Source: an uncultured Verrucomicrobiae bacterium
GTDB lineage: Bacteria > Verrucomicrobiota > Verrucomicrobiia > Limisphaerales > DASXHY01
Assembly: GCA_963699145.1 (NCBI GenBank)
Contig: OY969416.1
Coordinates: 986,226-1,050,225 of the forward strand
Direction: 5' to 3'
DNA: 64,000 nucleotides
A program made the translations under genes and the position numbers. The stretch's first letter is position 1. Each line of letters starts with the position of its first letter. Below the pieces are notes generated by a model. The model had not been told where the DNA came from, did not search any database, and was given only the letters and a program-made list of their open reading frames with translations. This document shows, piece by piece, positions 1-47,710 of this stretch.

Positions 1-263
1 TGGCACACATCCGCAGCCTTCAGAGAATGAATGCCGAGGCATTGCGCGCCGCGAAAACGAGTGATTATGTTTTTATCAATGACGGGGTCCACAACGGCGG
101 CCTGGCGCAGTGTTACGTGAGAACGCAGTTCCAGGTGGGCACGCTGCGCGAATGCGGGTTCACGGATATCCGCGTGTTCTCCAGCGAAACGGGGAGCGAG
201 TATTTGGGACAGGACGCCTGGTTTTCCGCGCAGGACCCGTGGTTGTATTACCTATGCAAGTGA
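1..263 (+). CDS. 3' end of a gene truncated by the window edge; methyltransferase-like C-terminus (tentative)
   Basis: Frame 3 is open from the window edge to TGA 261-263, so the listed ORF 27..263 is only its Met-started tail. The tail ...YVRTQFQVGTLRECGFTDIRVFSSETG... resembles the last strands of a class I SAM methyltransferase. No catalytic motif is visible. Confidence 0.4.
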   Translation, partial: AHIRSLQRMNAEALRAAKTSDYVFINDGVHNGGLAQCYVRTQFQVGTLRECGFTDIRVFSSETGSEYLGQDAWFSAQDPWLYYLCK

Positions 264-1456
264 AGGAAAATTTGGAAGCTGGCCAGTCTGACAAAGCCGC
301 GACGGAGCATGCAAAGCTCGCAGGGTCGCCGGCGAAAGAACCGGCCACCGGCGACGCTCCGCGGGACAAGGCGTCTTCGGCGCCGCGCGCGGGGGCGCAA
401 CCGGAGCGAGGTTTCGTGGCCGTGTCGAGAAGCGAGATTGGCGCGGACCGGTGGAATGCATTCGCGGAAAAGAGCCCGTCCGCGTGGTTGTGGCATCGCT
501 ACGACCTTTCCGAAATCTGGGGTGAATGGAACAAGCGGGAAGACAAGAGCTTTGCGCTGATCAGCCGGTCCAATTCCGAGATTGTGGCGACGGTGCCGAC
601 GTTTCTGGACGGCGGCCGGATTGCGAAATGGTTTCCCTGGAATTCCCTGCATGTCCTGGGCGGACCGGCAATTGATCCGCAAGTACCGCGCAAAATGAGA
701 ACGGAGGTTTGCGAGACCATTGCGCAACACCTGGAGACGATGGCGCGCGCGAATCAGGTTCAGGAAGTGAAGTATTCACTGGCGCCCATGACGCCGAACA
801 TCCGCGGTGAAGCCTGCCCGAGGATTAATCCGTTGTGGGAGTTTGGCTGCGCCAACGCAGTGGGCCAGACGTGGGTCTGCGATCTGCGCAAGTCAAAGGA
901 CGACCTCTGGCGCGGGATTGGCAAAGGCGCCAAGAGTTCGATCAGCAAGGCGCAGAAGCTGGGGGTGCAGGTTCGCCAGGCGAATGGCAGCGCGGATTTG
1001 GATGCCTATTACCGGTTGCATTGTGAAACCTACAGTCGCACCGGCAAAGGGGCGGATCCGCGCGTGCATTTTGAAATGATTTGGAAAAATTTTGTCGACC
1101 GGAAGCTGGCCGTTGTTTTTCTGGCGGAACATGAGGGCGCGGTGGTGGGTGCGGCAAAATTGGCTGTTTATAAAAAGGGCGCCTGGTATTGGACCGGTGG
1201 CTCTAATGCGGCGGGTTTGAATGCGGGCGCGAATGCATTGATTCAATGGCATGCGATCCAGTGGATGGTGGATAACGGCGTGGAATGGTATGAAGTGGGC
1301 GAAGCGCATCTGGGCCTGAAGAATAACAAGCTGAAGCAAATCAGTGATTTCAAAAAGGATTTCGGGGGCGAGCTTTATCCGTTGTTCAAGGGAACCATCG
1401 ACACGAAAACCCGGCTGGGAAGAACGCTGGCGTTGTTAAAGGATTTTCGGGGCTAG
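254..1456 (+). CDS. FemAB-family (GNAT-fold) aminoacyl transferase, EPS/PEP-CTERM-locus type, paralog 1
   Basis: ORF 110..1456. ATG 254 is preferred because 110-253 lies inside the upstream gene. It is colinear with the next gene through the blocks RINPLWEFGC..WV.DLR.SK.DLW..GKGAKSS..KAQKLGV, SNAAGL..GA..L.QW.A.QWM..NGVEWYEVGEA and SDFK.DFGG.L.P. This matches my knowledge of the FemAB-related family found in PEP-CTERM EPS loci. Confidence 0.8.
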   Translation: MQVKENLEAGQSDKAATEHAKLAGSPAKEPATGDAPRDKASSAPRAGAQPERGFVAVSRSEIGADRWNAFAEKSPSAWLWHRYDLSEIWGEWNKREDKSFALISRSNSEIVATVPTFLDGGRIAKWFPWNSLHVLGGPAIDPQVPRKMRTEVCETIAQHLETMARANQVQEVKYSLAPMTPNIRGEACPRINPLWEFGCANAVGQTWVCDLRKSKDDLWRGIGKGAKSSISKAQKLGVQVRQANGSADLDAYYRLHCETYSRTGKGADPRVHFEMIWKNFVDRKLAVVFLAEHEGAVVGAAKLAVYKKGAWYWTGGSNAAGLNAGANALIQWHAIQWMVDNGVEWYEVGEAHLGLKNNKLKQISDFKKDFGGELYPLFKGTIDTKTRLGRTLALLKDFRG

Positions 1457-1507
1457 GTCTTTATTTTCACGCCCGCGCGGGATTTATTTCCTCTGCGGCT
1501 GATACTT

Positions 1508-2689
1508 TTGGATTTTGACATGGAGACAAACGTGCACGCCACAACCGCGAGGGCTGAGAGCCCAAAAAAGGAAGCGCCCGCGCGTCCTGTGGTTGCTCTG
1601 GCAGCGCGGGTGACGCCGGAAGCTGCGCCGCAATACCGAAGCGTTTTGCGCACGGCGGTGGACAAGGCGGAATGGGATGCCTTGGTCGAAAGCAGCGATA
1701 CGGCGTGGTTTTATCACCTTTACCATTATTGCGAGATTTGGGGCGCGTGGCCGAATCGGTCGGACTTGAGCTTCGCGCTGGTGGATCCCGGTTCGTCCAA
1801 GCTGGCGGCAATCGCGCCCGCTTTCAAATTGGACGATAAATTGCAGCGTGTGCTGACGTGGAATACGATCGATGTCTTTGGCGGAATCACCTGCTCGCCG
1901 ACGCTGAATGATAGAAGCCGCCGCGCGGTGCAGGATGCGGCGGGCGGGGAGTTGCGGCGGTTGGCGCGAGAACACCGCGCGCAGGAGATTCGATTTTCCG
2001 TATCGCCGATGACGCCTTTTGTGCGCGGAGATAATTGCCCGCGCATCAATCCGCTGATGGAACTGGGCTGCGTGAACACGATGGGTTGCGCGTGGGTGGC
2101 CGACCTCAGGAATTCGAAAGAGGATCTTTGGAAAAAATTCGGCAAGGGCGCGAAGAGCTCGGTCAACAAGGCGCAAAAATTGGGCGTGACGACGCGGATG
2201 GGCCAGAGCGAACAGGATTTGGAGCGGTATTACGCCATTCACTGCGAGACGTATCGCCGCACCGGTGTCGAGCCGCAGCCACGGCATTATTTTGAGGGCA
2301 TTTGGAAACATTTTTTAGGCACCGGACGCGCGGTGATGTTTTTTGCGGATTACCAGGGCGAAACGATCGCGGCGGCGAGTTTTGTCGTTTACAAAAAAGG
2401 CGCTTATTACTGGACGGGCTGTTCGAATGCGGCCGGGTTGTCCACGGGCTCGGGAGCGTTGCTGCAATGGACGGCGATGCAATGGATGCTCGCCAATGGC
2501 GTGGAATGGTATGAAGTCGGCGAAGCGTATCCGTGGGCCAAGGAGGGAAAGTTGAAACAATTGAGTGATTTCAAAAGAGATTTTGGCGGCGACTTGTTCC
2601 CGGATTTTCGGGGGACGCTGAATACCAAAAACAAGTTGCAGAGCGCCGCGGCGGCCTTGACGCTGCTGAAGAGCGCGATCACGGGCTAA
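1508..2689 (+). CDS. FemAB-family aminoacyl transferase, paralog 2 (tandem duplicate)
   Basis: 393-aa ORF sharing the same conserved blocks as 254..1456 along its whole length (e.g. RINPLMELGCVNTMGCAWVADLRNSKEDLWKKFGKGAKSSVNKAQKLGV). The N-terminal ~50 aa are low-complexity in both copies. Confidence 0.85.
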   Translation: MDFDMETNVHATTARAESPKKEAPARPVVALAARVTPEAAPQYRSVLRTAVDKAEWDALVESSDTAWFYHLYHYCEIWGAWPNRSDLSFALVDPGSSKLAAIAPAFKLDDKLQRVLTWNTIDVFGGITCSPTLNDRSRRAVQDAAGGELRRLAREHRAQEIRFSVSPMTPFVRGDNCPRINPLMELGCVNTMGCAWVADLRNSKEDLWKKFGKGAKSSVNKAQKLGVTTRMGQSEQDLERYYAIHCETYRRTGVEPQPRHYFEGIWKHFLGTGRAVMFFADYQGETIAAASFVVYKKGAYYWTGCSNAAGLSTGSGALLQWTAMQWMLANGVEWYEVGEAYPWAKEGKLKQLSDFKRDFGGDLFPDFRGTLNTKNKLQSAAAALTLLKSAITG

Positions 2690-2755
2690 AGTTTTTGACA
2701 GACAATGAAAAATCTCGTATGTCGATGCGGACGTGCGAACGTTGATTCAATTTCC

Positions 2756-2834
2756 GGGGCTGTAGCTCAACTGGCAGAGCGGCATGCTGGCAACAGCGTG
2801 ACGATGAAGGTTCAATTCCTGTCCAGCTCCACCA
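2756..2834 (+). tRNA. tRNA-Ala(GGC)-like gene with encoded CCA but non-canonical 79-nt structure (aberrant anticodon arm)
   Basis: Acceptor stem GGGGCTG/CAGCTCC with a G3:T70 wobble, then A-CCA. D arm is GCTC-AACTGGCA-GAGC (G18G19 present) and the T loop is TTCAATT. The loop region contains TGGCAA (U33-GGC-A37-A38 of tRNA-Ala GGC). The anticodon arm reads CATGC-TGGCAACA-GCGTG, an 8-nt loop that can close to a 7-bp stem with a GCAA tetraloop. The T stem needs a bulged G, and there are 2 nt between the D and anticodon stems. Confidence 0.6.
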
Positions 2835-2859
2835 TTTCAATCGGTCCTCTATTATCCCA

Positions 2860-4464
2860 GTGACCATGTCCAATCACGATAGCAAGCCCCTGTGGCAGGG
2901 GTTCGTTGACAGCGCCGCCAAATTTCCGGATCGGCCGGCGCTGGAAGTGGGCGGGAGCACGTTCACTTACGCGCAATTATATGCGCAGGCGGCTTCGCTC
3001 GCGGCGACGTTGAAAAAACATGACGCCGGCGTTGAGCCTCCGCTGACGGCGGTGTTCGCCTATCGCACCGCGACGGCGTTTGCCGGCGTGCTCGCGGCGC
3101 TGTTTCGCGGGCATGGTTATGTGCCGCTGAATCGTACGTTTCCGGTGGAGCGTTCGAAAGGGATGCTGACGCGTTCGCAATGCCGCGCGGTGATTGTCGA
3201 TGCCCAATCCGAGTCGCAGCTCGAATCGTTGCTGGCGGATGCGGCGGATTCGTATCTGATCGTTCTTCCCGAACGCGCGGCGGTGGGCGACCTCGCCGCC
3301 CGCTGGCCGAAACATCGGTGGCTGGGCAAGGCGGATCTCGAGCCGGCGCAATCATGGAACCGCGGTGATTTTGGCTCGTGCCAATTCGCGTATCTGTTGT
3401 TCACGTCCGGAAGCACCGGAATTCCGAAGGGCGTTTTGGTGTCGCAGGCGAATGTTCAAGCTTACTTGAAATGGACGATTACGCGATACGGCATCACGGA
3501 GCAGGACCGGCACTCGCAGACGTTTGATTTTACGTTTGATTTGTCCGCGCACGATATGTTTGTGACCTGGGAAACGGGCGCGTGCCTGTGTTGCCCAAGC
3601 CAAAAACAGTTGATCAAGCCCGGCGCGTTCATCCGGGATTCGAAGATCACGATTTGGTTCTCGGTGCCCTCGACCGGCGTTTTTATGCGGCGGCTGGGGA
3701 TGTTGAAACCGGATATGTATCCCAACCTGCGCCTGACGCTGTTTTGCGGCGAGGCGTTGCCGGTGGAGACGGCGCGCGATTGGGCCAAGGCGGCTCCGAA
3801 TTCGGTGATCGAAAATATTTACGGGCCCACGGAATTAACCATCGCCTGCACGGCGTATCGCTGGAACGAGTCCACGTCGCCGGCGGAGTCGGTGAATGAA
3901 ACGGTGCCGATCGGACAGCCGTTTGACGGGATGCGAGTGCTGGTCGCGAATGAAGAATTGAAAGAAGTGGAGCCCGGGCAGGATGGCGAGTTGTTGATGA
4001 CCGGGCCGCAGCTCAGTTGCGGTTACTGGCACGACGAAGCGAAAACGAAGGCGGCTTTCGTGACGCCCCCGGGAAAAAATGAAGTGTTCTATCGGACCGG
4101 CGACCGCGTGCGCCGGCCAAAAAATGGCGAGCCGCTGGTTTACCTGGGCCGAATTGATAACCAGATTAAAATCATGGGCCATCGCGTGGAACTTGGCGAA
4201 ATCGAAGCGATGATACGGCGGTTTTCCGGCATGGACGGAGTCGTGGCGCTGGGATGGCCGCTTAACGCGGGTGGCGCGGATGGCGTGGTGGCCTTCGTGG
4301 AGACCGAGACTTTGGACTCGGCGGCGCTGGCCGAAAATTTAAAAACCAAGCTCCCGCCCTACATGGTGCCGCGCGCGTTTCATGCGCTGCGTTCGCTTCC
4401 CTTGAACGCGAATGGCAAATATGATCGCAAGGCACTGACGGAAATTTTGAAGAGCAACGCATGA
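2860..4464 (+). CDS. Stand-alone amino-acid adenylating enzyme (DltA-like / free-standing NRPS A domain)
   Basis: Adenylate-forming core motifs occur in order: LLFTSGSTGIPKGV, FDFTFDLSAHDMF (Asp consistent with an alpha-amino substrate), NIYGPTE, YRTGD, GRIDNQIKIMGHRVELGEIE, LPPYMVPR and NANGKYDRKAL. Start is GTG 2860 or ATG 2866. Confidence 0.9.
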   Translation: MTMSNHDSKPLWQGFVDSAAKFPDRPALEVGGSTFTYAQLYAQAASLAATLKKHDAGVEPPLTAVFAYRTATAFAGVLAALFRGHGYVPLNRTFPVERSKGMLTRSQCRAVIVDAQSESQLESLLADAADSYLIVLPERAAVGDLAARWPKHRWLGKADLEPAQSWNRGDFGSCQFAYLLFTSGSTGIPKGVLVSQANVQAYLKWTITRYGITEQDRHSQTFDFTFDLSAHDMFVTWETGACLCCPSQKQLIKPGAFIRDSKITIWFSVPSTGVFMRRLGMLKPDMYPNLRLTLFCGEALPVETARDWAKAAPNSVIENIYGPTELTIACTAYRWNESTSPAESVNETVPIGQPFDGMRVLVANEELKEVEPGQDGELLMTGPQLSCGYWHDEAKTKAAFVTPPGKNEVFYRTGDRVRRPKNGEPLVYLGRIDNQIKIMGHRVELGEIEAMIRRFSGMDGVVALGWPLNAGGADGVVAFVETETLDSAALAENLKTKLPPYMVPRAFHALRSLPLNANGKYDRKALTEILKSNA

Positions 4465-5027
4465 GTATGATCACGGCCGAAAATATAAAAGAATTTCTCC
4501 TGAAGAAATTCGAACCGGTCCTGCGCGACCAGGGCATGGGGTTGGACAAGGTGACGGACGATTTTGATTTCTTCGCCGAGGGAATCGTGGATTCCGTGGG
4601 CGTTTTGAATTTGATCAGTGACGTCGAGAAGACATTCAACGTGAAGCTCGACATGGAGCAAATGGATGCCGAGCAGATGACCATTGTCGGGCCGTTTTGC
4701 CGCTACGCGGCCGAACACAGCCAGCCGGCGGGAGCGAATGGGAGCTCGGCGAACGGGCACGGTTTGAGTTTGGAAGCGGTCCAGTCCGATGTGCGCAATT
4801 TTATCCGGCAGAATTATTCCATTGCCGCCGATGACCGGGATTTCACCGATGATGTGCATCTTTATAATGCGGGATATATCGATACGATGGGCGCCGGCAC
4901 TTTGAAAACGTTCGTGGAATCGAAGTATGCGATTCAAGTGACGCCGACCGATCTGGCCGCGCAGCCGATGAACACGGTTCGCGAGTTGTCGGCGTTTGTG
5001 GTCAAGCGCCGCAAGGGTGAGCTTTAA
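4461..5027 (+). CDS. Tandem (di-domain) DltC/ACP-like carrier protein
   Basis: ATGA overlap with the upstream stop (4461-4464). The first half has GIVDSVGVLNLI, a Ser phosphopantetheine site in DltC-like context. The second half repeats the context as GYIDTMGAGTL, with Thr in place of Ser. Confidence 0.8.
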   Translation: MSMITAENIKEFLLKKFEPVLRDQGMGLDKVTDDFDFFAEGIVDSVGVLNLISDVEKTFNVKLDMEQMDAEQMTIVGPFCRYAAEHSQPAGANGSSANGHGLSLEAVQSDVRNFIRQNYSIAADDRDFTDDVHLYNAGYIDTMGAGTLKTFVESKYAIQVTPTDLAAQPMNTVRELSAFVVKRRKGEL

Positions 5028-5057
5028 CAGCTCACGAGGTCGCGCGGAATCCCGAAT

Positions 5058-5793
5058 ATGAACGGCTGGAATGGACTTCTGGCGTGTGCAGTTTGTCTGA
5101 CGGTTGGAGTTGTCTTCGGAATTGGATTTGCGCTGGCGCGGCCGGGGTTGCTGCGGCGGGTCGCGAAAAAGTTGGGATTGCCGGACGGAAACCAGCGATG
5201 GTTTTATGAGCAGACCGTCGCCTTTCATCGGAGAATGGATGACTGCGTTCCCGACCAGGCCGTTCTTTTCATTGGCGACAGTTTTATCCAGGGCCTCTGC
5301 GTGACGGAGGTGGCTGCGAAGTCCATCAATTACGGGATCGGCGGCGATACGACCGAGGGCTTGCTGGCGCGGTTGCCGCACTACCCATCGCTGAACCGGG
5401 CCCGCGCGGTCGTGGTGAGCGTGGGAGAAAACGATTTGCGCAAAGGCCGCACGCCGGCGGATATCAACCTGAGTTACGGGCGGATTTTGGCCCGATTACC
5501 CGAAAAAAGTTTCCGTGTTTTTCTGTTCCCTGACGCCTTGCACAAAAGCAACGGCCAGCCCGTTGAACGATGCGGCTCTGAGTTTGAATCCCATCGTTCG
5601 ACAACTCTGCGCGTCGCGTCCGAACTGTCATTTTGTGGATTTGAATGAAGCGTTGTGCGGGAGCGACGGTTTTCTGCCGGCTCAATATGCGGAATCCGAC
5701 GGGGCGCATCTGAACGCGCGCGGCAATCGTGTGTGCATTGAAAAATTGAGAAAGCATTTGGAGAAAACGATTCCGAATTTAGGAACCGGTTGA
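5058..5793 (+). pseudogene. Membrane-anchored SGNH/GDSL hydrolase (DltD-like position) interrupted by a +1 frameshift
   Basis: ORF 5058..5648 carries an N-terminal TM helix plus block I FIGDSFIQG, block II GIGGDTT and block III VGENDL. The block V DGAHLN lies in ORF 5515..5793, one frame over. The second frame is open only from 5473, and the sensible join is at the A6 run 5503-5508 (..LARLPEK|VSVFFCSLTP..). Confidence 0.7.
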
Positions 5794-6000
5794 CAATCGT
5801 GTTATAACAAGATCGCAAAAGGAGGAAGTTGGGAATGAACGAAACAGGGCGAAGAATGTCAGGACCGAAAGAGAGGAAGGGCATAAAACCCAATTATCCC
5901 AAAAATCCACTTATCCGATTTTGGCCCGTCGCCCGAATTGCAGCCGGAGCGGGACAAAGAGGGATCCCAGAGCGAAATTCAGCCTTGGAAAAATGTCAAA

Positions 6001-6060
6001 GAATCCAAGTCAATCCAAGTGAATCAAACTGAATCAAACTGAATCAAAGTGAATCAAACC
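6001..6060. repeat. Six tandem copies of a 10-bp unit (gaatcaaact consensus)
   Basis: Read directly as gaatccaagt caatccaagt gaatcaaact gaatcaaact gaatcaaagt gaatcaaacc. It is intergenic, about 90 bp upstream of the acetyltransferase start. Confidence 0.9.
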
Positions 6061-6151
6061 AGGGGGGTGCTGGGGCCGAGCGAAGGAGAATTCAAAAAAT
6101 TACCAAACGAACCCATTTACAAGGGCGCATCAACTCTTCAATTAATCTCCT

Positions 6152-6910
6152 GTGAAAGATCGGTTAAAAAATTGGCTGCATAAAACTCTTGGCGATTTTG
6201 TTCCGTATCAAATGGCCGTCGGCGGCTATCGGTATTTTCTCGCGGGGCGTGAAAATCCCCATCCGCCGGAATCCTTTCTGCATTTTGGGAAAAACGTCAG
6301 GATAGAGGGTAACTCGGCGATCACGGCTCCGGAACGGCTTTATCTCGGTGACAATACAAGCTTGTCCCAGAGCGTGCAAATCAATGCCGTGGGCGGCTGC
6401 CATATCGGCCGGGCCTGCCAGATCGCGACGGAGGCCATGATCCTCACGGTGGATCACCAATACAGCGAAGGGGAAGCGCTTCCGTATGATCGCGTGCGGT
6501 TGGTGAAGCCGGTGGTGATAGAGGATTACGTCTGGATTGGCGCTCGCGCGTTGATCGCGCCGGGCGTGCGCATCGGTGAGGGGGCCATTATCGGCATGGG
6601 CGCGGTCGTGCTTCAGGATATCCCGCCACTGGCGATCGCGGCCGGGAATCCGGCCCAGGTGTTGACGTACCGCTCGAAGGCTGAGTTTGATCGGGCGAAA
6701 AGCGCGGGTGAAGAGATCGATCCTTATAAAGAAGTGCCGTTGTTAAAAGTCCCGGCGATCACCAAACGGAAGTTCAAAGCGGAATTGGCGGCCTTTGGCT
6801 TCGATGTGTCCAATGGCCAGGAGTACTTTTGTTACGATAAGCGTCAGAAATTGAGCCAGCGTCTCGTTTCCGTTAAAGGTCCGGCCGCTCCGGGAAAAAC
6901 AGGCCCCTAG
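6152..6910 (+). CDS. Hexapeptide-repeat (LbH) sugar O-acetyltransferase
   Basis: The C-terminal half is classic left-handed beta-helix text: VWIGARALIAPGVRIGEGAIIGMGAVVLQDIPPLAIAAGNPAQV. GTG start at 6152. Confidence 0.85.
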   Translation: MKDRLKNWLHKTLGDFVPYQMAVGGYRYFLAGRENPHPPESFLHFGKNVRIEGNSAITAPERLYLGDNTSLSQSVQINAVGGCHIGRACQIATEAMILTVDHQYSEGEALPYDRVRLVKPVVIEDYVWIGARALIAPGVRIGEGAIIGMGAVVLQDIPPLAIAAGNPAQVLTYRSKAEFDRAKSAGEEIDPYKEVPLLKVPAITKRKFKAELAAFGFDVSNGQEYFCYDKRQKLSQRLVSVKGPAAPGKTGP

Positions 6911-7056
6911 CAATTACAATGACCGCTGTTATCGTGAAACTCTGGATTATTATGCAGTTTTTGGCAAAGAACGGCCCGAGGGGGCATGGTTGGGGACGGC
7001 CCGGGTTTGACGGGGTGCGGAGTGCCTTGGCATTTGACCTGCTAATTCGACCCGTT

Positions 7057-10000
7057 GTGAATGTGCATTGTCGTACCGTCGTAAAATATTCATTAACAAC
7101 TATTTTTGCCGCGTTCGTTTTCCTCATCGGTTTATCGGTGAATAGCCGCGCTGCCGATTTGGTGGTCAGCAATAATGCGATCATTAACATCTTCGGCGAT
7201 TCGCAATTTACTGATAGCACTGCTCCCAGCACTGGGTTTCGGTTTCCTGATTTTCTGGAATCCTATTTTCAATTGAATTATCCGACCTCCCACATTCACG
7301 TGTATAACATCAGCCGATCGGGGGGGACGATGGATGACCGACTGACGAATAGCGTGCAGAAAAACGGCTTGGGATTGTGGGGATATCAATTCAACAACTT
7401 TCAGCACATCGGAATTTCGGAGTCGACGGAGAATGGCTCGCTGACCAGTAATCAAATGTACCTGGCGCAGAGCAATCTTTTTATGGCTCCGGCGTTGATG
7501 AGTGATGGAGGTCCAAATTTAGTGGCCCATAGTGGATGGGCGGCAAATCATCCGGTTCAGTGGATTGGGCTGGGCCAGATTCCCGGAGGCGCGTTGGGTG
7601 ATTTGGGCGCACAGGCGGTCAATGACGGAGGCACCAACGCCGGGTGGACATTGGGAGTTCGCGGAGTAGATGATTGGCATTGTCTCTTGCAACCGGAAAT
7701 CAACGATTACGTCAACAATGGAGGTTTATCCGCCGGATGGTTTAAAGGAGGGCATCCCGGCGCGGGCATGGAACTGGCGATGGCGTTTGTCTTTTTGAGA
7801 CAAATCACCACGGACACGAATATCTCGACGGCCGCGGTGGATTGGAACAGCGCGACTGCGGTGAGCACCAATCATTGCGTCATTTCCTCGGTCAACCGGA
7901 ATGGAAATGTGCTGACGTTCAATCGCCTCGATGACCGGCTGCCGATGGCGTGGGATATCAATCCGTTGATGGGCATTACGAACGATTGCATGCAGGCGTT
8001 CGTGTTGGATCCAACCTTTGCGGACATGTTCAAGTTCACCATCCGGGTGGCCAATCTCCCGGCCGGACAATATGCGGTGCTTATCGATGGACAATTGGCC
8101 GGCGTGGTTGCGGATACGGTTCTTTCCAGCGCGAACGGGTGGAATATGTTTACGAACATCAGCGGCCCGTATTGGGCGCAGCGCACGGAAGTGTTGGGAC
8201 GCATCCGCGACAAGGAGCACGTGGATCGATATACGCGTGTTCCCGGCAGTGCGGGAGATCAGCAGGGAATGGTCAGCTATGGGTCCTATGCCAATGCGTA
8301 TTGGAGCACCAACGGCCGTGGCGATGCGTTGATCAATCTTCTCTCGAGCCGGGTGGCGAACGTGATGGCGCTGGACGCGCTCACGGCGCAGGCCGCGCAG
8401 CCGACGAATCACACGTTCACCATCATGCCGTTCGCGCCGACGGCGATCGTCAAAGCGTCAGCGTTGGTTAACGCGCTGAATGTGCCGGTCATTCTCGACG
8501 GCTCGGCCAGCGTCAAGGCGACGAATTATTATTGGGAACAAGTCAGTCCCACGCTGCCGCAACTGGATATGATTGGCCAGGGCACGGCCAAGCCGATGTT
8601 GATCTCGGTGACCAATGCCGGCACTTACACCTTCCGCCTGACGGTGGATGACGGGCAAACCTTGAGTTCGAACCAGGTGACCTTGACCTTTGTGCCGCCG
8701 GCCGGCCGAACGATTTTCGTGGACGGCCAGCTGGCGGCGAATTGCCTGAACAATAACTATTCGATCGCGAATCGCAACGCCAGTGGCTCGGATGGCAACG
8801 CTTACACGACCATTCAAGCGGCCGCCAACGCGACCAGGCCGGGCGATGTGGTCTATATTCGCGGCGGGCTTTATACGAACGCGCCGGCCACGGCGAATCA
8901 GAATCTGGTGATGTTGACGGTTTCCGGAACGGCCACGGCGCCGATTCGATACGAGAATTATAATGGCGAACACGTGACTCTGGCGGGGTGGGGCTTCTCC
9001 GATGTCGATACGAACGGCGACGGCTTTGCCGACGGGCCTACCTATCCGGCGTGGCGGCAGACTTTGTTCTTCGTTCCCTATGGAATCGATTATATCCAGG
9101 TCAAAGGCCTCGAACTGACGAACTCGCAACAGACGGGGTTAAACGTTGAAGGCCGCTTCTGCTTCGCGCAGGAATGCAGCTCCCATGACAATTGGACAGC
9201 CGGCGCAGCCATCACGCGCGCCCGGCTCGGGACGAACACGATTTGCGGCACGGTTTTCCGCTGGATGGAGGCTTATCGGAATCGTCATTTCGATGGACTT
9301 TGCTTTGAGTTGGAGGATCAACAAACCTTTGGTTTCATGTCGGATTGCGCGATTGTGGATTCGGTTTCTTATCGAAATGGTTACCAGCCGGACGGCCGCG
9401 AAGTCATGCCGATCGGTGGCGATCCGCAAGGTGGCGGCAATTCGGATGGATTGGGAGCGACGAAGTTTTTTGCCGACGACGCCAGCTTTTCTCCTCAATA
9501 TGGCGTGCGCAACTGGGGCACAAACCTTTTCATTATTCGCAATATCTTGTTCAATAACTGTGATGACGGCTGCGATATTTCTTGTGCGGCATCTCTGGTG
9601 GAAGATAACCGCTCTCTGTTTAACGGCCCTACCGGCACCATGGGCTACAAAATCTTTCGCCCGACACAGAACATGATTTATCGTGGCAATGTCGCCTACG
9701 GGAACATGGGGCGTGGATTTGAGATGCGAATCGACACGAACGCCTACATACAGGTCTACAACAACACGTCACTGAAAAACCAGGAGCATGGGTTTTACAT
9801 CGCGGGCACCGATGCCCGGGGGACAAATAATGTGGCCGCTTACAATGGCGGCCCGGACTGGCCGCTGACTCAATCTCCCAATTGGGCCGCTGATGGCGGC
9901 AACGCGACCGCCGGAATGTCGGGAAACCCGATGCTGCTGAACACAAATGTGTCTCTCTCGAGTGCTTTTGTGCCGACCTGGACGGTGCGCCAAAAGCACG

Positions 10001-10251
10001 ATTACCTGGAGGGACAGATTCGGCAGGCGCTCTCTCCCGCAGTGGGTAGTCCGTTGCTGGGCGCGGGCGTTTTCATTCAAAGCTACCATTGCCCGCGCGC
10101 AGACAATGATCCGAATTCCCCGATGCTGCTGAGCGCTCCGGGACGGCACTGGAAGCAGCCGGCGCCGAATTTGGGCGCGTTGGATCTGCAGACGACGACT
10201 GGCACTCCCAAACCCCCGACGCCGACCATTAATAGCCTGACGAATTTGTAA
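7057..10251 (+). CDS. Large secreted multidomain protein: SGNH-like N-domain, PKD/Ig-like domain and right-handed parallel beta-helix (pectate-lyase-fold) domain
   Basis: ORF 6919..10251. In-frame GTG 7057/7063 gives a plausible signal peptide (..KYSLTTIFAAFVFLIGLSVNSRA/ADL). NIFGDSQFTDS is GDS-like. ILDGSAS...TYTFRLTVDDGQTLSSNQVTLTFV is PKD-like. FVDG...GSDGNAYTTIQAAANATRPGDVVYIRGGLYT followed by repeated N-rich turns (YNNTSLKNQEHGFYI) is beta-helix-like. Confidence 0.75.
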   Translation: MNVHCRTVVKYSLTTIFAAFVFLIGLSVNSRAADLVVSNNAIINIFGDSQFTDSTAPSTGFRFPDFLESYFQLNYPTSHIHVYNISRSGGTMDDRLTNSVQKNGLGLWGYQFNNFQHIGISESTENGSLTSNQMYLAQSNLFMAPALMSDGGPNLVAHSGWAANHPVQWIGLGQIPGGALGDLGAQAVNDGGTNAGWTLGVRGVDDWHCLLQPEINDYVNNGGLSAGWFKGGHPGAGMELAMAFVFLRQITTDTNISTAAVDWNSATAVSTNHCVISSVNRNGNVLTFNRLDDRLPMAWDINPLMGITNDCMQAFVLDPTFADMFKFTIRVANLPAGQYAVLIDGQLAGVVADTVLSSANGWNMFTNISGPYWAQRTEVLGRIRDKEHVDRYTRVPGSAGDQQGMVSYGSYANAYWSTNGRGDALINLLSSRVANVMALDALTAQAAQPTNHTFTIMPFAPTAIVKASALVNALNVPVILDGSASVKATNYYWEQVSPTLPQLDMIGQGTAKPMLISVTNAGTYTFRLTVDDGQTLSSNQVTLTFVPPAGRTIFVDGQLAANCLNNNYSIANRNASGSDGNAYTTIQAAANATRPGDVVYIRGGLYTNAPATANQNLVMLTVSGTATAPIRYENYNGEHVTLAGWGFSDVDTNGDGFADGPTYPAWRQTLFFVPYGIDYIQVKGLELTNSQQTGLNVEGRFCFAQECSSHDNWTAGAAITRARLGTNTICGTVFRWMEAYRNRHFDGLCFELEDQQTFGFMSDCAIVDSVSYRNGYQPDGREVMPIGGDPQGGGNSDGLGATKFFADDASFSPQYGVRNWGTNLFIIRNILFNNCDDGCDISCAASLVEDNRSLFNGPTGTMGYKIFRPTQNMIYRGNVAYGNMGRGFEMRIDTNAYIQVYNNTSLKNQEHGFYIAGTDARGTNNVAAYNGGPDWPLTQSPNWAADGGNATAGMSGNPMLLNTNVSLSSAFVPTWTVRQKHDYLEGQIRQALSPAVGSPLLGAGVFIQSYHCPRADNDPNSPMLLSAPGRHWKQPAPNLGALDLQTTTGTPKPPTPTINSLTNL

Positions 10252-17680: not shown

Positions 17681-17720
17681 GCCGACGGTTGAGCCTTCTC
17701 TGCAATTGATAAACAAACAT

Positions 17721-18533
17721 ATGGACCACCTCTCAAAACTCGAAAATCAAAGCGTCTACATTCTGCGCGAGGCGTATAGCAAATTTGAAAACCTCGGGAT
17801 GCTGTGGAGCATCGGCAAGGATTCTACGGTAATGCTCTGGCTGGCGCGCAAGGCGTTTTTCGGCCATGTCCCTTTTCCGCTCGTGCACGTGGACACGACT
17901 TACAAGATTCCTTCGATGATCGAATATCGCGACAAGCTGGTGCGGGATTGGAAGCTGCAACTGGTGGTCGGCAAAAACGAGGAAGTCTTGCGCAGCGGAA
18001 ATACGTTTCCGAATAACAAATTGACGCGCGTGGAATGCTGCGGCGCGCTCAAGAAGGACGCGCTCAAAACCGTGCTCGATAAACATCGTTTCACCGGCGT
18101 GATCGTCGGCGTGCGCCGCGATGAGGAACCGACGCGCGCGAAGGAGCGTTATTTCAGTCCGCGCGATAAAAACATGGAATGGAATGTCGAGGACCAGCCG
18201 CCGGAATTGTGGGACCAGTTTAAGACCGATTACGAGCCGGGCACGCACATCCGCATCCATCCGCTGTTGCATTGGACGGAGCTGAACATTTGGGAATACA
18301 TCGAGCAGGAAAATATCCCGGTGATTCCGCTTTATTTTTCGAATGACAAGGGTGAGCGGTATCGTTCCATCGGTTGCTATCCCTGCACGTTTCCCATCCA
18401 GTCGAAGGCCAGCACCGTGCCGGAGATTATTTCGGAATTGCGCGCGACCAGGACGCCGGAACGCGCCGGGCGCGCCCAGGACAAGGAAAGCGAGGACGCT
18501 TTCGAGAAACTGCGCCGCGACGGGTATATGTGA
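17721..18533 (+). CDS. cysD: Sulfate adenylyltransferase subunit 2
   Basis: [38 protein letters not shown]...HVDT PAPS-reductase-fold motifs; C-terminus ...[16 protein letters not shown]. Confidence 0.92.
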
Positions 18534-18551
18534 GTTGCGCCGGGTTCTCGC

Positions 18552-18624
18552 AGGAGACGAGGTGACGAGTCTCAAATTATTCGAGTCTTGAAATGGAAGT
18601 TTGAGACTTCTTACGTCGTCTCCT
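18552..18624 (+). other. Long imperfect hairpin filling the cysD-cysNC spacer
   Basis: aggagacga (18552-60) pairs with tcgtctcct (18616-24), and agtctcaaa (18568-76) pairs with tttgagact (18600-08). The segment between is mostly paired. Confidence 0.6.
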
Positions 18625-18645
18625 ACAGGCTAAAGAAATAAAAAT

Positions 18646-20595
18646 ATGATCTCCACCACTCCAGTTTTGGCGAATCGCGACAAAAACGGCGGCGCTGCCA
18701 CGTTGCCCACGGGTGACACGGCAGTCGTCGACGCTTCCGGTCGCCAGCTCAAGATCGTCATCGTGGGCCACGTGGATCACGGCAAGTCGACGTTCGTGGG
18801 ACGGTTGTTGCACGACACGGGCTCGCTGCCGGAAGGCAAGCTGGAGCAATTGCAGAAAATCGCCGAACGCCGCGGCATGCCGTTCGAGTGGGCGAACTTG
18901 ATGGACGCGTTGCAGGCTGAGCGCGACCAGAATATCACGATTGATACCGCGCAGATTTGGTTTCGCACGAAGAAACGGCAATACGTCATCATCGACGCGC
19001 CGGGCCACAAGGAATTTCTCAAGAACATGATCACCGGCGCGGCGAACGCGGAAGCGGCGCTGCTGTTGATCGACGCGCAGGAAGGCATCCAGGAAAATTC
19101 CCGCCGCCACGGTTACCTGCTGCATTTCCTCGGCATCACACAAATCGCGGTGTTGGTGAACAAAATGGATTTGGTTGGTTACTCGCAGGAACGGTTTGAG
19201 GCGATTGAACACGAATATCGCGCGTTCCTGAAATCGCTCGGTGTGGAGGCGCGCATTTTTGTCCCGATGGCCGCGCGCGACGGCGAGAACATCGCGGCGC
19301 CCAGTCAAAAGATGCCGTGGTGGACGGGGTCGACGGTGTTGAACGTGCTCGATCAGTTCCGCACGTCGGACCCGCCGTCGCATTTGCCGTTGCGTTTCTC
19401 GGTGCAGGACGTTTACCGGTTTGATGAGCGCCGCATCCTGGCGGGCCGCGTGGAATCGGGCATGATCAAGGTGGGCGACCGCCTGCAATTCTGCCCCACG
19501 AACAAAGTCAGCGTCGTGAAGAGCATCGAGCGTTGGAGCGCACCGGCGGCGGAGGGCGCTTCGGCTTCGGAATCGATTGGCATCACGCTCGCCGAACAAA
19601 TTTTCGTCGAACGTGGCGCGGTGGGCGCGCGCGAGGAGGCGCTGCCGTATACTCTGAATCGGCTGAAGAGCCGCGTGTTTTGGATGGGCCGCGCGCCGTT
19701 TAAGAAAGGCAAACTCTACAAGCTGAAACTGCTCGCGCAGGAAGTGGATTGCGAAATCGATTCGATTGAAAAAGTTTTGGACGCCTCCACGCTCGAAACG
19801 GTGCGCCGCGATGACAAGAACGCGCACGTGGGCCGTTACGAGATTGCTGAATTATATTTGCGCACCAAACGTCCGGTGGCGTTCGACGCGCATTCGGAAA
19901 TTATCACGACGGGTCGGTTCGTGATTTGCGACGATTTCGATGTGGTGGGCGGCGGCATTGTGGTGGAAGACGCGTATCCGCGGCTCTCGTCGGACGCGCA
20001 TCACAAGAGCCACAATATTTATTGGACCGAAGGCAAAATCGCCACCAAACAGCGGGCGCATCGCAACGGCCATCTCGGCCGCGTGGTGTGGCTGACGGGT
20101 TTGTCGGGCGCGGGGAAATCGACGGTGGCCACCGAACTCGAACGCGAGTTGTTCAACCTCGGCATGCAGGCGTATGTGCTGGACGGCGACAAGGTGCGTC
20201 ACGGATTGTGTTCCGATCTCGGCTTTTCGCCCGACGATCGCCGCGAAAATATTCGTCGCATCGGTGAGATGGCGAGGATCATGGCGGATGCGGGATTCAT
20301 TTGCATCACGGCGTTCATTTCGCCGTATCGAGCCGATCGTGACACCGTGCGCGAGCGCATGGAGCCGGGCCAATTCGTGGAAGTGTATGTGAACACGCCG
20401 CTGACGGTTTGCGAAACTCGCGATCCGAAAGGCTTGTATGCGAAGGCGCGCGCGAATGAGATCAAGGAATTCACCGGCATTTCCGCGCCCTACGAAGCGC
20501 CGCTGAAGCCGGAACTGGAAATACCGACGCACCAGTTGAGCCTCCAGGAATCGGTTGCGAAGATTGTGGAATATTTGCGGGAAGAGGCGGAGTGA
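18646..20595 (+). CDS. cysN: Bifunctional sulfate adenylyltransferase subunit 1 / adenylylsulfate kinase
   Basis: GTPase motifs [14 protein letters not shown] and NKMD in the N-terminal 430 aa. The C-terminal APS-kinase domain has [13 protein letters not shown] and ISPY..DR. Confidence 0.92.
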
Positions 20596-29289: not shown

Positions 29290-30255
29290 ATGAATTCGCC
29301 AACGAGCCACTTGAATCCAGCCCCGTCCTCAGTTGACTCTCATTCGCCGGCGGCGGGGAATGGTTTCGTGCCGTCGTGGCGGCAGTTCAGGGGGTTGATT
29401 ATTTTTGCCGTGGTGCTGAGCGCGGTGTTTTGCCGGCCGTTGCTGGGGTTGCTGGAGTTCGCGCCGCACAAGGAGTTGTATTCGCACATTTTGTTGATTC
29501 CCTTCATCAGCGGCTATCTCATCTGGACGAAACGCCGGGAAGCGGTGCCGGTATCGCGGCCCAATCGCGCGCTGGCGGTGTTGCCTTTCCTGGCGGGCGT
29601 GGCGGTGCTGGGGCTGTATCGGTTCGGCCGGGGACGCGGTTGGGCCTTTGAAGACGCGGATTACCTGGCGGTGATGACGCTGGCGTATCTATGTTTCCTG
29701 TTGAGCGGCGCGTTTATTTTCGTGCAGCGCAACTATCTGAAATCGATCACTTTTCCGATTGCCTTCCTGATTTTCTGCGTGCCGTTCCCGACATTTTTGC
29801 AGGATGGACTGGAAACATTTTTCCAGCGTGGCTCCGCGCACGTGGCGTATGCGATGCTCTCGGTGTCAGGGATGCCCGTGTTGAAAACGGGAACGAACCT
29901 GCTTTTGCCTGCTTTTGTGATGGACGTGGCGCCGGAGTGCAGCGGGATACATTCGAGCCTGGTGCTGTTCATCACCAGCCTGGTGGCCGCGTATATGTTT
30001 CTCGAAACGCCTGTCCGGCGCTGGATTTTCGTGTTGAGCATCGTTCCGTTGGCGCTGTTGCGCAATGGATTCCGGGTGTACACGCTGGGAGAGCTGGGCG
30101 TTCATTTTTTCCCGAACATTCTCAAGTCCTGGTTTCATCACCATGGCGGGCCAATATTTTTCCTGTTGTCACTCGTGCCGCTATTTCTTTTATTGGTATA
30201 CCTGATGAAAGGTGAAGCGCGCAAACGGGCAGCACTGGCCAATCGAACCAAATGA
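29290..30255 (+). CDS. Exosortase (XrtA-like, EpsH family) integral membrane transpeptidase
   Basis: Multi-TM protein with the exosortase triad contexts VAPECSGIHSSLVLF (Cys), LLRNGFRVYTL (Arg) and WFHHHGGPIFF (His). Confidence 0.85.
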   Translation: MNSPTSHLNPAPSSVDSHSPAAGNGFVPSWRQFRGLIIFAVVLSAVFCRPLLGLLEFAPHKELYSHILLIPFISGYLIWTKRREAVPVSRPNRALAVLPFLAGVAVLGLYRFGRGRGWAFEDADYLAVMTLAYLCFLLSGAFIFVQRNYLKSITFPIAFLIFCVPFPTFLQDGLETFFQRGSAHVAYAMLSVSGMPVLKTGTNLLLPAFVMDVAPECSGIHSSLVLFITSLVAAYMFLETPVRRWIFVLSIVPLALLRNGFRVYTLGELGVHFFPNILKSWFHHHGGPIFFLLSLVPLFLLLVYLMKGEARKRAALANRTK

Positions 30256-38356: not shown

Positions 38357-39067
38357 ATGAAAGTTAATTTAAAATCGATAGTGGGAATCGCGGCAGTGTC
38401 CGCCGCGGGGGTGTTTAACTCTGCGGCTTCTACGGTCACTTATGAATTCGGCGACGTGTCGGCTGGACCTAGTCCGGCGGGAACGCCGCCGTGGGTCCAG
38501 GCATCCTTTAGCGACGTCGGCATGCCGTCGGATACGGTGCAATTGACGTTGACGGCCGAGAATCTCGCTGCGGGTGCTTATGTGAGTTCCTGGTATTTCA
38601 ACGTGGATTCCCTGTTGGTTCCGACTTCCCTCCAGTTCGCGCAGACCGCGTCTGCCGGCTCATTCGGGGGACCAACGATCTCAACAGGCGCCAACGCTTT
38701 TAAAGCCGGCCCCGATGGCAAGTTTGATATTCTCTTCGCCTTCAACTCGACCGGCGATGATTCGAGTCGTTTCACCAGTGGTGACTCCGTCACGTTTACC
38801 ATCAGCGGCATCAGTGGCTTGACCGTTCAGGAATTCAATGAACTGAGCACCACCGCAGGGGGCTTGAGCGCCTATACGTCGGCGGCGCATATCGAGTCCG
38901 CCCCGAGCGATTGCCCCTCCTGGGTCAATCCGTCGGCCATGACGCAGATTCAGGGAAATGCGGACACCCGGGTTCCGGATGCCTCCGCCACGATTTCGCT
39001 TCTGGGCGTGTCCCTGGCGGGAATCGAAGCCTTGCGCCGGAAGTTGAAGTCCCGCTTGGCGAAGTAA
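38357..39067 (+). CDS. Secreted protein with VPDxG-type PEP-CTERM sorting tail
   Basis: Signal peptide. C-terminus RVPDASATISLLGVSLAGIEALRRKLKSRL gives a VPD motif, a hydrophobic helix and a basic cluster. Confidence 0.75.
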   Translation: MKVNLKSIVGIAAVSAAGVFNSAASTVTYEFGDVSAGPSPAGTPPWVQASFSDVGMPSDTVQLTLTAENLAAGAYVSSWYFNVDSLLVPTSLQFAQTASAGSFGGPTISTGANAFKAGPDGKFDILFAFNSTGDDSSRFTSGDSVTFTISGISGLTVQEFNELSTTAGGLSAYTSAAHIESAPSDCPSWVNPSAMTQIQGNADTRVPDASATISLLGVSLAGIEALRRKLKSRLAK

Positions 39068-39598: not shown

Positions 39599-40331
39599 AT
39601 GAAAAACAAAATCTTAATCGGGGCGTGCAGCGCAGTCGCAGTGCTGGCAATGGCCTCTTCGGCTCATGCGACGAGCAGTATCGGTGTCGAGGTTTCATTT
39701 AGTGACGTTAGCGGCGGCGCTTTTTCGGCACCGGTGATTGTGAATGACGGTGGTCCTGGTGACATTCTTTCGGGAACGCCGGGAGCTGTTGCAATGTTCT
39801 TTAGCTTTAACGGTCTTACCGTTGCGGCGATTTTGGGTAACGGGACTTCCAGCGGTAGTACCTGCTCCCCAGTTGACCGTTCAGATCACTGATAGTGCCC
39901 TCCAGGTCGGCGAAACCGTGAAGGTTCGTTTTTCGGCCGCAGGTTTCTCACTTCCCCTGAATGGTCACGCCGAGCTTTCCGATACCGAGAATGCTCTTGG
40001 AAGTACTGGAAGCTACTCGTTTGCTGGGTCGGCGTCGACAAGCCAGACAGGCGGCGCACTGTTCGACATGAGCAATCCGATGATTACGGATGCCACGCTC
40101 AACACGTTGAGCACCACCGAGAACACTGGAGTGCTTCCGCTTCTCACGAGCAATCCGTATTCGATCACGATCGAAGCGGACTTGCATAATACGGGCACCG
40201 GCATTGCTACTGTGAGTGCGACCGCGGATCTCGCCACAGTTCCGGACGGCGGCAACACTCTGATGTTGCTGGGTTCGGCTCTGTCGATCCTCGGCTTGGG
40301 CACGTTCCGTCGGAAGGCTGTCAAGGCCTAA
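39599..40331 (+). pseudogene. VPDGG-CTERM secreted protein split by a +1 frameshift
   Basis: ORF 39599..39892 carries the signal peptide MKNKILIGACSAVAVLAMASSAHA. ORF 39744..40331, the next frame, carries the body and the tail TVPDGGNTLMLLGSALSILGLGTFRRKAVKA. A sensible join is at or near the C4 run 39867-39870. Confidence 0.7.
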
Positions 40332-47593: not shown

Positions 47594-47606
47594 AACGTGC
47601 TAATTA

Positions 47607-47707: not shown

Positions 47708-47710
47708 CAT

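Follow-up and report, generated by a model that had tools for sequence, protein, structure and literature searches.

A putative polysaccharide-aminoacylation cassette with a tRNA-Ala-derived RNA in an exopolysaccharide locus of an uncultured Verrucomicrobiae bacterium

The window analysed here is a stretch of 64,000 nucleotides from an uncultured Verrucomicrobiae bacterium (contig OY969416.1, positions 986,226 to 1,050,225), and it covers an exopolysaccharide (EPS) locus whose first genes encode two FemAB-type transferases, a tRNA-like RNA, an amino-acid adenylase, and a carrier protein. From the sequence we tentatively read these genes as a composite polysaccharide-aminoacylation cassette of a Wzx-dependent EPS locus, a cytoplasmic pathway in which two modules would work one after the other and assemble a short Ala-(Ala)-Gly/Ala side chain, and we give this reading a chance not far below even. 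The most unusual (rare) part of the cassette is the RNA, an anticodon-sequestered derivative of tRNA-Ala. It is possible, if rather short of an even chance, that this RNA is a natural anticodon-sequestered tRNA-Ala that is charged by the housekeeping alanyl-tRNA synthetase (AlaRS), cannot be used by EF-Tu and the ribosome, and serves as a private carrier for Fem-type transferases that work in series with an AlmE-like carrier pathway to build short EPS peptide side chains.

A preliminary description of the window had placed seven consecutive same-strand elements in this region, and all seven are present on the + strand where it had put them. They are listed here with their neighbours on either side.

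27..263, + strand: 3' end of a UbiE-type S-adenosylmethionine-dependent methyltransferase gene, truncated by the window edge, which leads the methyltransferase-FemAB sub-module
254..1456, + strand: FemAB-type transferase 1 (FemAB1), 400 aa, subclade A, a double-GNAT protein predicted to be an aminoacyl-tRNA-dependent aminoacyl transferase
1508..2689, + strand: FemAB-type transferase 2 (FemAB2), 389-393 aa, subclade B; the database protein P0001 has 389 aa, which fits the ATG start at 1520
2756..2834, + strand: tRNA-Ala(GGC)-derived tRNA-like RNA, 79 nt, with a match to the Rfam tRNA family
2860..4464, + strand: stand-alone amino-acid adenylase, AlmE/DltA/IdnL7-like; the database protein P0024 has 532 aa, which fits a start at 2866
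4461..5027, + strand: two-domain carrier protein, 188 aa, with matches to PP-binding and DltC/acyl carrier protein (ACP) models
5058..5793, + strand: membrane-tethered SGNH/GDSL hydrolase or transferase, frameshifted, with Lipase_GDSL_2 matches in two frames
6152..6910, + strand: left-handed beta-helix (hexapeptide, LbH) acyltransferase, WcaF-like, with Hexapep and WcaF-family matches
6919..10251, + strand: large secreted or anchored PKD/beta-helix protein with a K319L-like PKD domain, a neighbour whose membership of the pathway is uncertain

Two separable modules and a proposed pathway

Related loci, numbered L001 onward, carry the parts of this cassette in different combinations, which are set out below with the identity of each adenylase to that of the window.

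L035 (adenylase 87% identical): flippase, adenylase, two-domain carrier, SGNH protein, LbH protein, and large beta-helix protein; no FemAB, methyltransferase, or tRNA-like RNA
L037 (adenylase 73% identical): same order as L035, with an unrelated 244-aa protein in place of the SGNH protein; no FemAB, methyltransferase, or tRNA-like RNA
L006 and L036 (adenylase 92% identical): one FemAB gene (subclade B) abutting the adenylase gene, with the RNA absent between them; in L006 a methyltransferase gene lies just upstream
Window and L005 (window as reference, L005 adenylase 90% identical): adenylase preceded by two FemAB genes and the RNA
L001 (no adenylase): flippase-like gene, methyltransferase, FemAB, RNA, ACP, FkbM methyltransferase, aminoacyl-tRNA synthetase (aaRS)-like ligase, and LbH protein

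L005 begins within its upstream FemAB gene, so that the methyltransferase position is outside view there, and the methyltransferase is seen in the window. The gene at 8711-9907 of L001 encodes an aaRS-like (atypical seryl-tRNA synthetase-like) amino acid:[carrier protein] ligase, which matches Bll0957 (PDB 3mey) with an E value of 1.9e-20 and NF005479 with 118 bits. As this ligase stands in place of the adenylase with the ACP and the LbH protein kept, the carrier is presumably loaded with an amino acid and the LbH protein is its constant partner. More distant FemAB genes (at most 46% identity) lie beside a UbiE-type methyltransferase gene in Wzx- or ABC-dependent polysaccharide loci, and no carrier, adenylase, or tRNA-like RNA was found near them; a narrower protein-alignment locus search returned only relatives of at most 43% identity, none of them with a carrier, an adenylase, or a tRNA-like RNA. 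Genes for a polysaccharide deacetylase or a DegT aminotransferase are present in several of these distant, carrier-less loci, and FemAB together with the methyltransferase probably acts on a sugar amine in such loci. The two modules are separable in evolution, as each is found without the other in related loci. The core of the first consists of the activating enzyme, the carrier, and the LbH protein, with the SGNH protein as an optional member: its gene is frameshifted in the window, absent from L001, and replaced in L037.

We infer the substrates, the order of steps, the roles of the LbH and SGNH proteins, the topology, and the charging of the RNA from the homology, motifs, identity elements, synteny, and conservation that are set out in this and the following sections. 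In module 1 (2860-6910), the adenylase would activate a small amino acid, Gly more likely than Ala, and the activated residue would be bound in thioester linkage to the carrier, at the Ser of its N-terminal, DltC-like domain. Transfer from there to the sugar chain would take place on the cytoplasmic face and would most likely be the work of the LbH protein, with the SGNH protein as an accessory; in that case no DltB-type membrane channel would be needed. In module 2 (27-2834), which comprises the methyltransferase, the two FemAB proteins, and the RNA, alanine would be supplied on the private tRNA-Ala derivative. Fem-type enzymes require a free amine, and Pfam scans of the window found no deacetylase or aminotransferase gene able to make a sugar amine. 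The only evident amine is then the alpha-amino group of the residue delivered by module 1, which would place the modules in series, in a manner analogous to the extension of a peptidyl chain by PacB or of the glycine bridge by FmhB, FemA, and FemB. We favour serial action as the likelier case. The product would be a short Ala-(Ala)-Gly/Ala side chain, perhaps also methylated.

The strongest competitor to this proposal, which we nevertheless consider unlikely, is that the modules make two parallel and independent decorations, module 1 esterifying the glycan with Gly or Ala and the FemAB proteins adding tRNA-borne Ala to another amine of the repeat unit. The occurrence of the modules apart (L035 and L037 on one side; L003, L004, L007, L008, and L010 on the other) would fit this, as would the methyltransferase-FemAB block, which looks as if it had been inserted after the flippase gene and before the adenylase. 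However, a gene for making the sugar amine that such a scheme would need was not found in the window, and the RNA has been seen only beside a carrier system, even where the activating enzyme has a different fold. The preliminary description had spoken of two independent aminoacyl-transfer routes. Both machineries are indeed encoded and separable in evolution, but their functional independence is put in doubt by the restriction of the RNA to the vicinity of a carrier and by the lack of another evident amine acceptor for the Fem enzymes in this locus.

The tRNA-like RNA and the Fem-type transferases

The element at 2756-2834, proposed earlier to be a tRNA-like RNA, matches the Rfam tRNA family (RF00005) with 39.4 bits against a gathering score of 29 (E 1.5e-5). 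ARAGORN called no tRNA at these positions, because the predicted fold turns the anticodon arm into a stem of 7 bp with GCAA at its tip. In its acceptor stem, D arm, and T loop (G18G19; U54-U55-C56-A57-A58) the RNA looks like a normal tRNA, and the CCA end is encoded. Positions 32-38 read CUGGCAA, the normal sequence of an Ala(GGC) anticodon loop, and are followed after position 38 by a 3-nt insertion (CAG in the window, CAA in L001) that pairs with C/U32-U33-G34. This pairing leaves G35-C36-A37-A38 as a GCAA tetraloop and turns a 10-nt loop into 3 bp plus the tetraloop, and the accessible seven-nucleotide anticodon loop of a canonical tRNA is absent. The T stem carries one extra nucleotide, bulged on its 3' strand.

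The best full-length blastn matches, from a plasmid collection, are genuine tRNA-Ala(GGC) and tRNA-Ala(UGC) genes; blastn against E. coli genomes gave no match. When the RNA is aligned with ordinary tRNA-Ala, the acceptor stem and discriminator are identical and the D arm is almost identical. The bacterial tRNA-Ala identity set comprises A73, G2-C71, G3.U70, G4-C69, and G20 (PMC9976931), of which A73, G2-C71, G3.U70, and G4-C69 are kept here and are invariant in three of three copies, and the main determinant that FemX reads on its tRNA is G2-C71 (PMC2655667). The acceptor stem would thus retain all that AlaRS and FemX read there, and with its anticodon paired shut and its T stem bulged the RNA should stay out of translation. 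The earlier guess that the polysaccharide is alanylated is consistent with this predicted alanine identity.

Copies of the RNA were found in three loci, namely the window, L005, and L001 (which is the same contig as L002 and L012), and in each it lies directly 3' of a FemAB gene and beside a carrier system. The L005 copy is identical to that of the window at 78/79 positions (99%) and the L001 copy at 73/79 (92%); neighbouring genes share 68-83% nucleotide identity, and the intergenic DNA flanking the RNA cannot be aligned between the window and L001. None of the 23 base pairs is broken in any of the three copies, and the GCAA loop does not vary; the anticodon-closing stem remains fully paired, with a double substitution (C-G to U-A) at one pair and a single one (U.G to U-A) at another. 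Both insertions are conserved across loci whose FemAB proteins share only 54-59% identity. The RNA was seen only in loci that have both modules and a FemAB protein of subclade A or C, in a very small sample of three loci, and the absence of the RNA from the FemAB-adenylase junctions of L006 and L036 indicates that it is not obligatory for at least subclade B.

Wider searches added no copies. An exact-pattern scan gave 0 matches in 185,579 species genomes, and the corresponding scan of metagenome contigs returned the contig already known and one chance match inside rpmJ (L011). When 35 loci and the window, about 455 kb in all, were searched with a covariance model of the RNA (R1), no additional copy came up; a match of 50 nt in L020 (E 0.38) was taken as chance, since it lies inside a coding open reading frame (ORF) at the methyltransferase position. 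Rfam scans of six other FemAB loci gave no tRNA. Full-text searches of the literature turned up no account of a tRNA-like gene situated in a polysaccharide or Fem locus. The RNA lies inside the operon, and a promoter and terminator scan around it detected neither. Just 5' of it, the window and L005 share a 13-nt block, ATGAAAAATCTCG (window 2705-2717; L005 1676-1688), and a block ATTCAATTTCC, both missing from L001, which may represent a leader, a signal for processing, or a promoter.

Both FemAB proteins exceed the gathering cutoff of the Pfam FemAB family (PF02388), with 35.4 bits for FemAB1 and 45.3 bits for FemAB2 against a cutoff of 24 over about 80 covered residues, in agreement with the earlier assignment of two FemAB paralogs. 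A profile built from nine homologues matched only aminoacyl-tRNA-dependent transferases in the PDB, namely FemX of Weissella (E 6e-10), FmhB, FemA, and peptide synthases of the streptothricin family. The AlphaFold model of FemAB2 has a predicted local distance difference test score (pLDDT) of 78, and in a Foldseek search of the PDB its top 11 matches are FemX, FmhB, FemA, and Sbb17/Sba18, with TM-scores of 0.6-0.8; MprF falls below these, and acyl-CoA-dependent tandem GNATs appear from rank 12 onward. An FK..FGG motif is invariant across 15 FemAB homologues (K356 in FemAB2, K367 in FemAB1), and it falls within the stretch aligned, at profile level only, to positions 171-311 of the NCBIfam FemX model, the part that holds the catalytic Lys305 (PMC12945691). 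Together with the model, these matches lead us to predict that FemAB1 and FemAB2 are aminoacyl-tRNA-dependent transferases of the double-GNAT fold.

The subfamily numbers 19 proteins in a word-indexed protein search. FemAB1 is identical to the database protein P0006 and to the FemAB1 of L033, and its L005 orthologue is 80% identical. In L033, this identical FemAB1 is accompanied by a full methyltransferase gene (1492-2289, 265 aa; Pfam Methyltransf_25/11/31), and the adjacency of methyltransferase and FemAB genes is repeated in L001, L003, L004, L006, L007, L008, and L010. The two are fused in one polypeptide in P0010 and P0018 (665-668 aa). Such near-constant adjacency, together with the fusion, suggests a coupled aminoacylation-methylation step. 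A FemAB-like homologue of about 40% identity is also encoded at 6001-6990 of L017, on the chromosome of a Methanoregula (archaeal) metagenome-assembled genome (MAG).

A different account of these two components, which we regard as improbable, would make the FemAB-like proteins tandem GNATs that use acyl-CoA and the RNA a cleavage site for RNase P or RNase Z, or a stability element, that splits the operon transcript. Acetyltransf_6 is the stronger Pfam match in both paralogs (56 bits for FemAB1, 58 bits for FemAB2), and acyl-CoA-dependent proteins do enter the fold search, if only after rank 11; the position of the RNA inside the operon and its absence from L006 and L036 would also suit a processing signal. 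However, the top 11 structural matches and all PDB sequence matches are aminoacyl-tRNA-dependent. A pure processing signal would need neither G3.U70 nor A73, and the wobble pair is invariant while the stem of the anticodon arm shows compensatory change.

Adenylase, carrier, and acyltransferases

The adenylase matches the amino-acid adenylation domain model TIGR01733 with 327 bits against a cutoff of 317, and it scores well below the cutoffs of the DltA models TIGR01734 (265 against 560 bits) and NF003417 (277 against 476 bits). Its A4 motif contains Asp within FDLSAHD, and the A10 Lys is present. The closest PDB relatives are 8k4r, AlmE (4oxi), and IdnL7 (6akd), with E values of 1e-85 to 1e-93, and DltA follows at 1e-57. 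A DltA-like amino-acid adenylase with the A4 Asp had been proposed; an amino-acid adenylase with a small-residue pocket and this Asp it is, but it falls under the DltA cutoffs and is closer to AlmE and IdnL7. The ten pocket positions were read off pairwise alignments anchored on the A4, A5, and A10 motifs, with GrsA numbering. The resulting specificity code, which the preliminary description had named as a check, is DLHFLCIIAK and is AlmE-like: it shares 7/10 positions with AlmE (4oxi; DLHLFCLIAK) and 6/10 with Bacillus cereus DltA (DLMTLCTVAK), with Leu and Cys in common. In AlmE and DltA, the Leu and Cys adjoin C-alpha, and DltA accommodates the methyl group of D-Ala partly through a Leu-to-Thr change (PMC11253843). 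At this position (278) AlmE has Leu, DltA has Thr, and the window adenylase has Phe, which, with the AlmE-like pocket, leads us to predict Gly as the first choice, with Ala possible; as judged from this code, Gly is the more likely substrate.

The adenylase family is large, with 7,083 proteins at E<=1e-60 and at least 120 at 60% identity or more among the matches listed. Neighbouring carrier and LbH genes were checked for five adenylase relatives (73-92% identity). The cassette points in this way to a widespread, uncharacterised adenylase/carrier/LbH module.

The carrier had been described as DltC-like, which holds for its N-terminal domain, where the phosphopantetheine Ser is kept (GIVDSVG). 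The 188-aa protein has two domains, however, and the second is ACP-like with Thr in place of that Ser (GYIDTMG); the DltC equivalog models score 40 against a cutoff of 68 bits and 31 against 52 bits. In all the fused carriers (window 4461-5027; L005 3431-3997; L035 11626-12198; L036 2493-3059; L037 11596-12168), the Ser of the C-terminal domain is replaced by T or P. The stand-alone 85-aa ACP of L001 is orthologous to this C-terminal domain (54% identity) and keeps the Ser. The Ser-less domain may be a docking module.

The SGNH gene of the window carries a +1 frameshift in an A6 run at 5503-5508, within CCCGAAAAAAG, and one A fewer restores the frame; tblastn with the intact L005 orthologue gave two high-scoring segment pairs in different frames. 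The orthologues in L005, L035, and L036 are intact, with 244-247 aa, and the frameshift could be a homopolymer sequencing error or could mark a real or phase-variable pseudogene. A single N-terminal hydrophobic segment forms the anchor. It is preceded by no charge, or by one Lys/Glu in the orthologues, and followed by five or six Arg/Lys, and by the positive-inside rule these flanking charges predict that the catalytic domain is probably cytoplasmic, the opposite of DltD. Membership of the DltD family was rejected, as the intact orthologues have no match to PF04914 even at E<=10; the SGNH protein matches weakly a family of SGNH domains fused to AT3 proteins. Of the earlier view that this is a membrane-anchored SGNH protein with the position and topology of DltD, the anchor and the gene order survive, whereas the charges, the missing DltD match, and the frameshift speak against the rest.

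The LbH acetyltransferase that had been assigned to 6152-6910 is borne out by its Hexapep and WcaF-family matches. Orthologues with 63-84% identity are present in L005, L036, L035, L037, and L001, and it is the only downstream partner retained in all variants of the cassette. It could be the transferase that takes the residue from the carrier, much as LpxA and LpxD use acyl-ACP, or equally an N-acetyltransferase that caps the residue.

A complete Dlt system would also include the membrane protein DltB. No MBOAT protein was found in Pfam scans of all long ORFs of the window, where the only multi-pass membrane proteins are the exosortase, a PrsK-like kinase, and a distant MFS transporter. The preliminary description had likewise reported none, and had allowed that DltB might lie just upstream; none is present in the 2.3 kb upstream either, which in L033 encode the UbiE-type methyltransferase and a Wzx-like flippase. 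The 10 kb to each side of the adenylase in L035 and L037 contain no MBOAT gene either, nor does the L036 locus, and there is no AT3 gene in the window, L033, L035, or L036. L037 has, two genes upstream of its adenylase, a gene (7185-8330) for an AT3 (Acyl_transf_3) membrane acyltransferase. An SGNH domain could have this protein as its partner in the membrane, although L037 itself is without an SGNH gene. With DltA and DltC models below their cutoffs, no DltD match, and no MBOAT, the trio described earlier as Dlt-like does not hold up, and the adenylase/carrier/SGNH set is not a Dlt system lacking one part.

It is correspondingly quite improbable that module 1 performs true D-alanylation of the Dlt type with its membrane partner (DltB/MBOAT or AT3) encoded elsewhere in the genome. 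The six shared pocket positions with DltA, including Leu and Cys, the DltC-like carrier domain, the AT3 gene of L037, and the weak match of the SGNH protein to the AT3-fused family could be cited for it. Besides the model scores, it is opposed by the bulky Phe at position 278, which resembles the Leu of AlmE and not the Thr of DltA (PMC11253843), by the absence of MBOAT and AT3 genes from the window, L033, L035, and L036, and by the dispensability of the SGNH protein in L001 and L037.

Several observations count against the serial pathway that we prefer and against the role proposed for its RNA. The pathway is drawn from homology, motifs, and gene context. Module 1 is very widespread without FemAB, and FemAB with the methyltransferase is widespread without a carrier, so that each can work independently. 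The PF13480 family also includes enzymes thought to use acyl-CoA, the closest resemblance of the LbH protein is to acetyl-CoA-dependent acetyltransferases, and, with its SGNH gene frameshifted, this copy of the pathway may be defective. In the RNA, position 20 is C rather than G, a minor AlaRS determinant; the three loci that bear it amount to about two independent lineages, and a covariation test on the three sequences, in which 166 of 500 shuffles did as well, has no statistical power. The close relatives L006 and L036, in which FemAB abuts the adenylase, do without it altogether. That the RNA is a decaying tRNA-Ala pseudogene, possibly an integration-site remnant of the methyltransferase-FemAB insertion, is nonetheless very improbable: tRNA genes are common integration sites, the block is variably present, and ARAGORN rejects the element, but the RNA has changed far less than the genes and intergenic DNA around it, its 23/23 pairs are intact in three copies with compensatory change, and both insertions persist beside FemAB proteins that have diverged far more.

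Known systems and the surrounding locus

The closest precedent for module 1 is AlmEFG, a Gram-negative adenylase/carrier system that aminoacylates without DltB, with transfer at the inner membrane face (PMC4278540), and that puts glycine and diglycine on a surface glycolipid, the lipid A of Vibrio cholerae (PMC4278540, PMC11253843). Both systems have a stand-alone adenylase and a small carrier, and the shared pocket positions include D, L, H, and C. They differ in the transferase, which in AlmEFG is AlmG, an LpxL-type membrane acyltransferase, and for which the candidates here are the LbH and SGNH proteins; Pfam scans of the cassette and window gave no match to an AlmG-type (LpxL-family lipid A) acyltransferase. 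A second ACP-like domain, which lacks the Ser, sets the carrier here apart, the presumed target is an EPS repeat unit instead of lipid A, and AlmEFG has neither Fem enzymes nor a tRNA. The preliminary description did not recognise its combination of parts as described; a Gram-negative adenylase/carrier pair without DltB is already known from AlmEFG (PMC4278540), but for the RNA we found no published account. With DltABCD, the cassette has in common the DltA-like Leu/Cys pocket, the DltC-like carrier domain, an anchored protein of the SGNH fold, and the gene order. It differs from DltABCD in the absence of DltB/MBOAT, of a DltD match, and of DltA and DltC scores above cutoff, in an SGNH protein that is probably cytoplasmic and not always present, and in a bulkier pocket.

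Module 2 has its closest parallels among staphylococcal and Streptomyces enzymes. Dedicated non-proteogenic tRNA-Gly species serve Fem enzymes (PMC7826273), and in the staphylococcal system of FemX/FmhB/FemA/FemB, as possibly here, paralogous transferases add residues sequentially from a tRNA apparently set aside from translation. The S. aureus tRNAs have a normal anticodon loop, in contrast to the anticodon held in a stem and the GNRA tetraloop of the window RNA, and here the acceptor is not peptidoglycan, the predicted amino acid is Ala, and the genes lie in a diderm EPS locus. PacB transfers Ala from Ala-tRNA onto the growing peptidyl chain of a nonribosomal peptide synthetase pathway, and Orf11 acts on an amino sugar (PMC12945691). 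PacB, Orf11, Sbb17, and Sba18 are Fem-fold enzymes that work outside cell-wall synthesis, Orf11 and Sbb17 aminoacylate an amino sugar, and Sbb17/Sba18 are among the top fold matches of FemAB2. The peptidyl intermediate of PacB is reportedly carrier-bound. These enzymes belong to Streptomyces antibiotic pathways and use ordinary tRNAs, and a review makes no mention of a dedicated tRNA-like gene for enzymes of the PacB/Orf11 type (PMC12945691).

The aaRS-like amino acid:[carrier protein] ligases of the Bll0957 family are represented in L001, where one stands beside the orthologous ACP and replaces the adenylase; the window itself has no such enzyme. Those members of the family that have been characterised charge carrier proteins with Gly or Ala. 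That such a ligase can take the place of an ANL adenylase among the same neighbouring genes may be a clue to what these orphan ligases do in the cell. If the proposed function of the RNA is right, it would be perhaps nature's clearest example of a tRNA that closure of the anticodon removes from translation while its synthetase identity is kept, and it would bear on the long-standing question of how aminoacyl-tRNAs are shared between the ribosome and non-ribosomal transferases. Peptide and aminoacyl side chains of diderm EPS are poorly understood and their biosynthetic genes largely unknown, and the cassette offers a concrete, testable set of genes for them.

The remainder of the EPS locus encodes GT4 and GT2 glycosyltransferases, an AsnB-type amidotransferase, CysD/CysNC, sugar-nucleotide dehydrogenases and epimerases, and an outer-membrane barrel protein, as well as the exosortase, a TPR protein, a seven-transmembrane (7TM) histidine kinase, and a sigma-54 regulator. 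The large protein at 6919..10251 is syntenic in L005, L036, and L035, and its orthologues show a Pel9A-like beta-helix. An exosortase A (XrtA) setting had been suggested earlier, but the exosortase (29290-30255) fits XrtC, the VPDSG-CTERM type, best, with 281 bits just below the cutoff of 300, against 117 bits for XrtA. Two small downstream proteins (38357-39067 and 39744-40331) carry VPDSG-CTERM sorting signals. The XrtA-associated families TIGR03019 and TIGR03098 resemble the cassette in placing FemAB-like and AMP-binding genes in PEP-CTERM/exosortase EPS loci, yet the cassette scores far under their cutoffs (TIGR03098, acyl-CoA ligase, 192 against 592 bits; TIGR03019, FemAB, 42-45 against 260 bits) and its exosortase is XrtC-like.

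Genes for the synthesis of 3'-phosphoadenosine 5'-phosphosulfate (PAPS), CysD and CysN/C, lie at 17706-20595 of the window, and sulfotransferase genes occur in related loci (L001 1059-2042, L035 7373-8359, and L037 5198-6163). Together they suggest a sulfated EPS, which aminoacyl groups would render zwitterionic. The nearest named homologues belong to MAGs labelled Candidatus Angelobacter (Acidobacteriota in the NCBI taxonomy) and Verrucomicrobiae. Farther along the window, at 45284-54372 on the - strand, three large ClpB-like double-AAA+ genes (769, 1117, and 1103 aa) lie in tandem; their products have STAND-like N-terminal NTPase matches and are seemingly unrelated to the EPS cassette.

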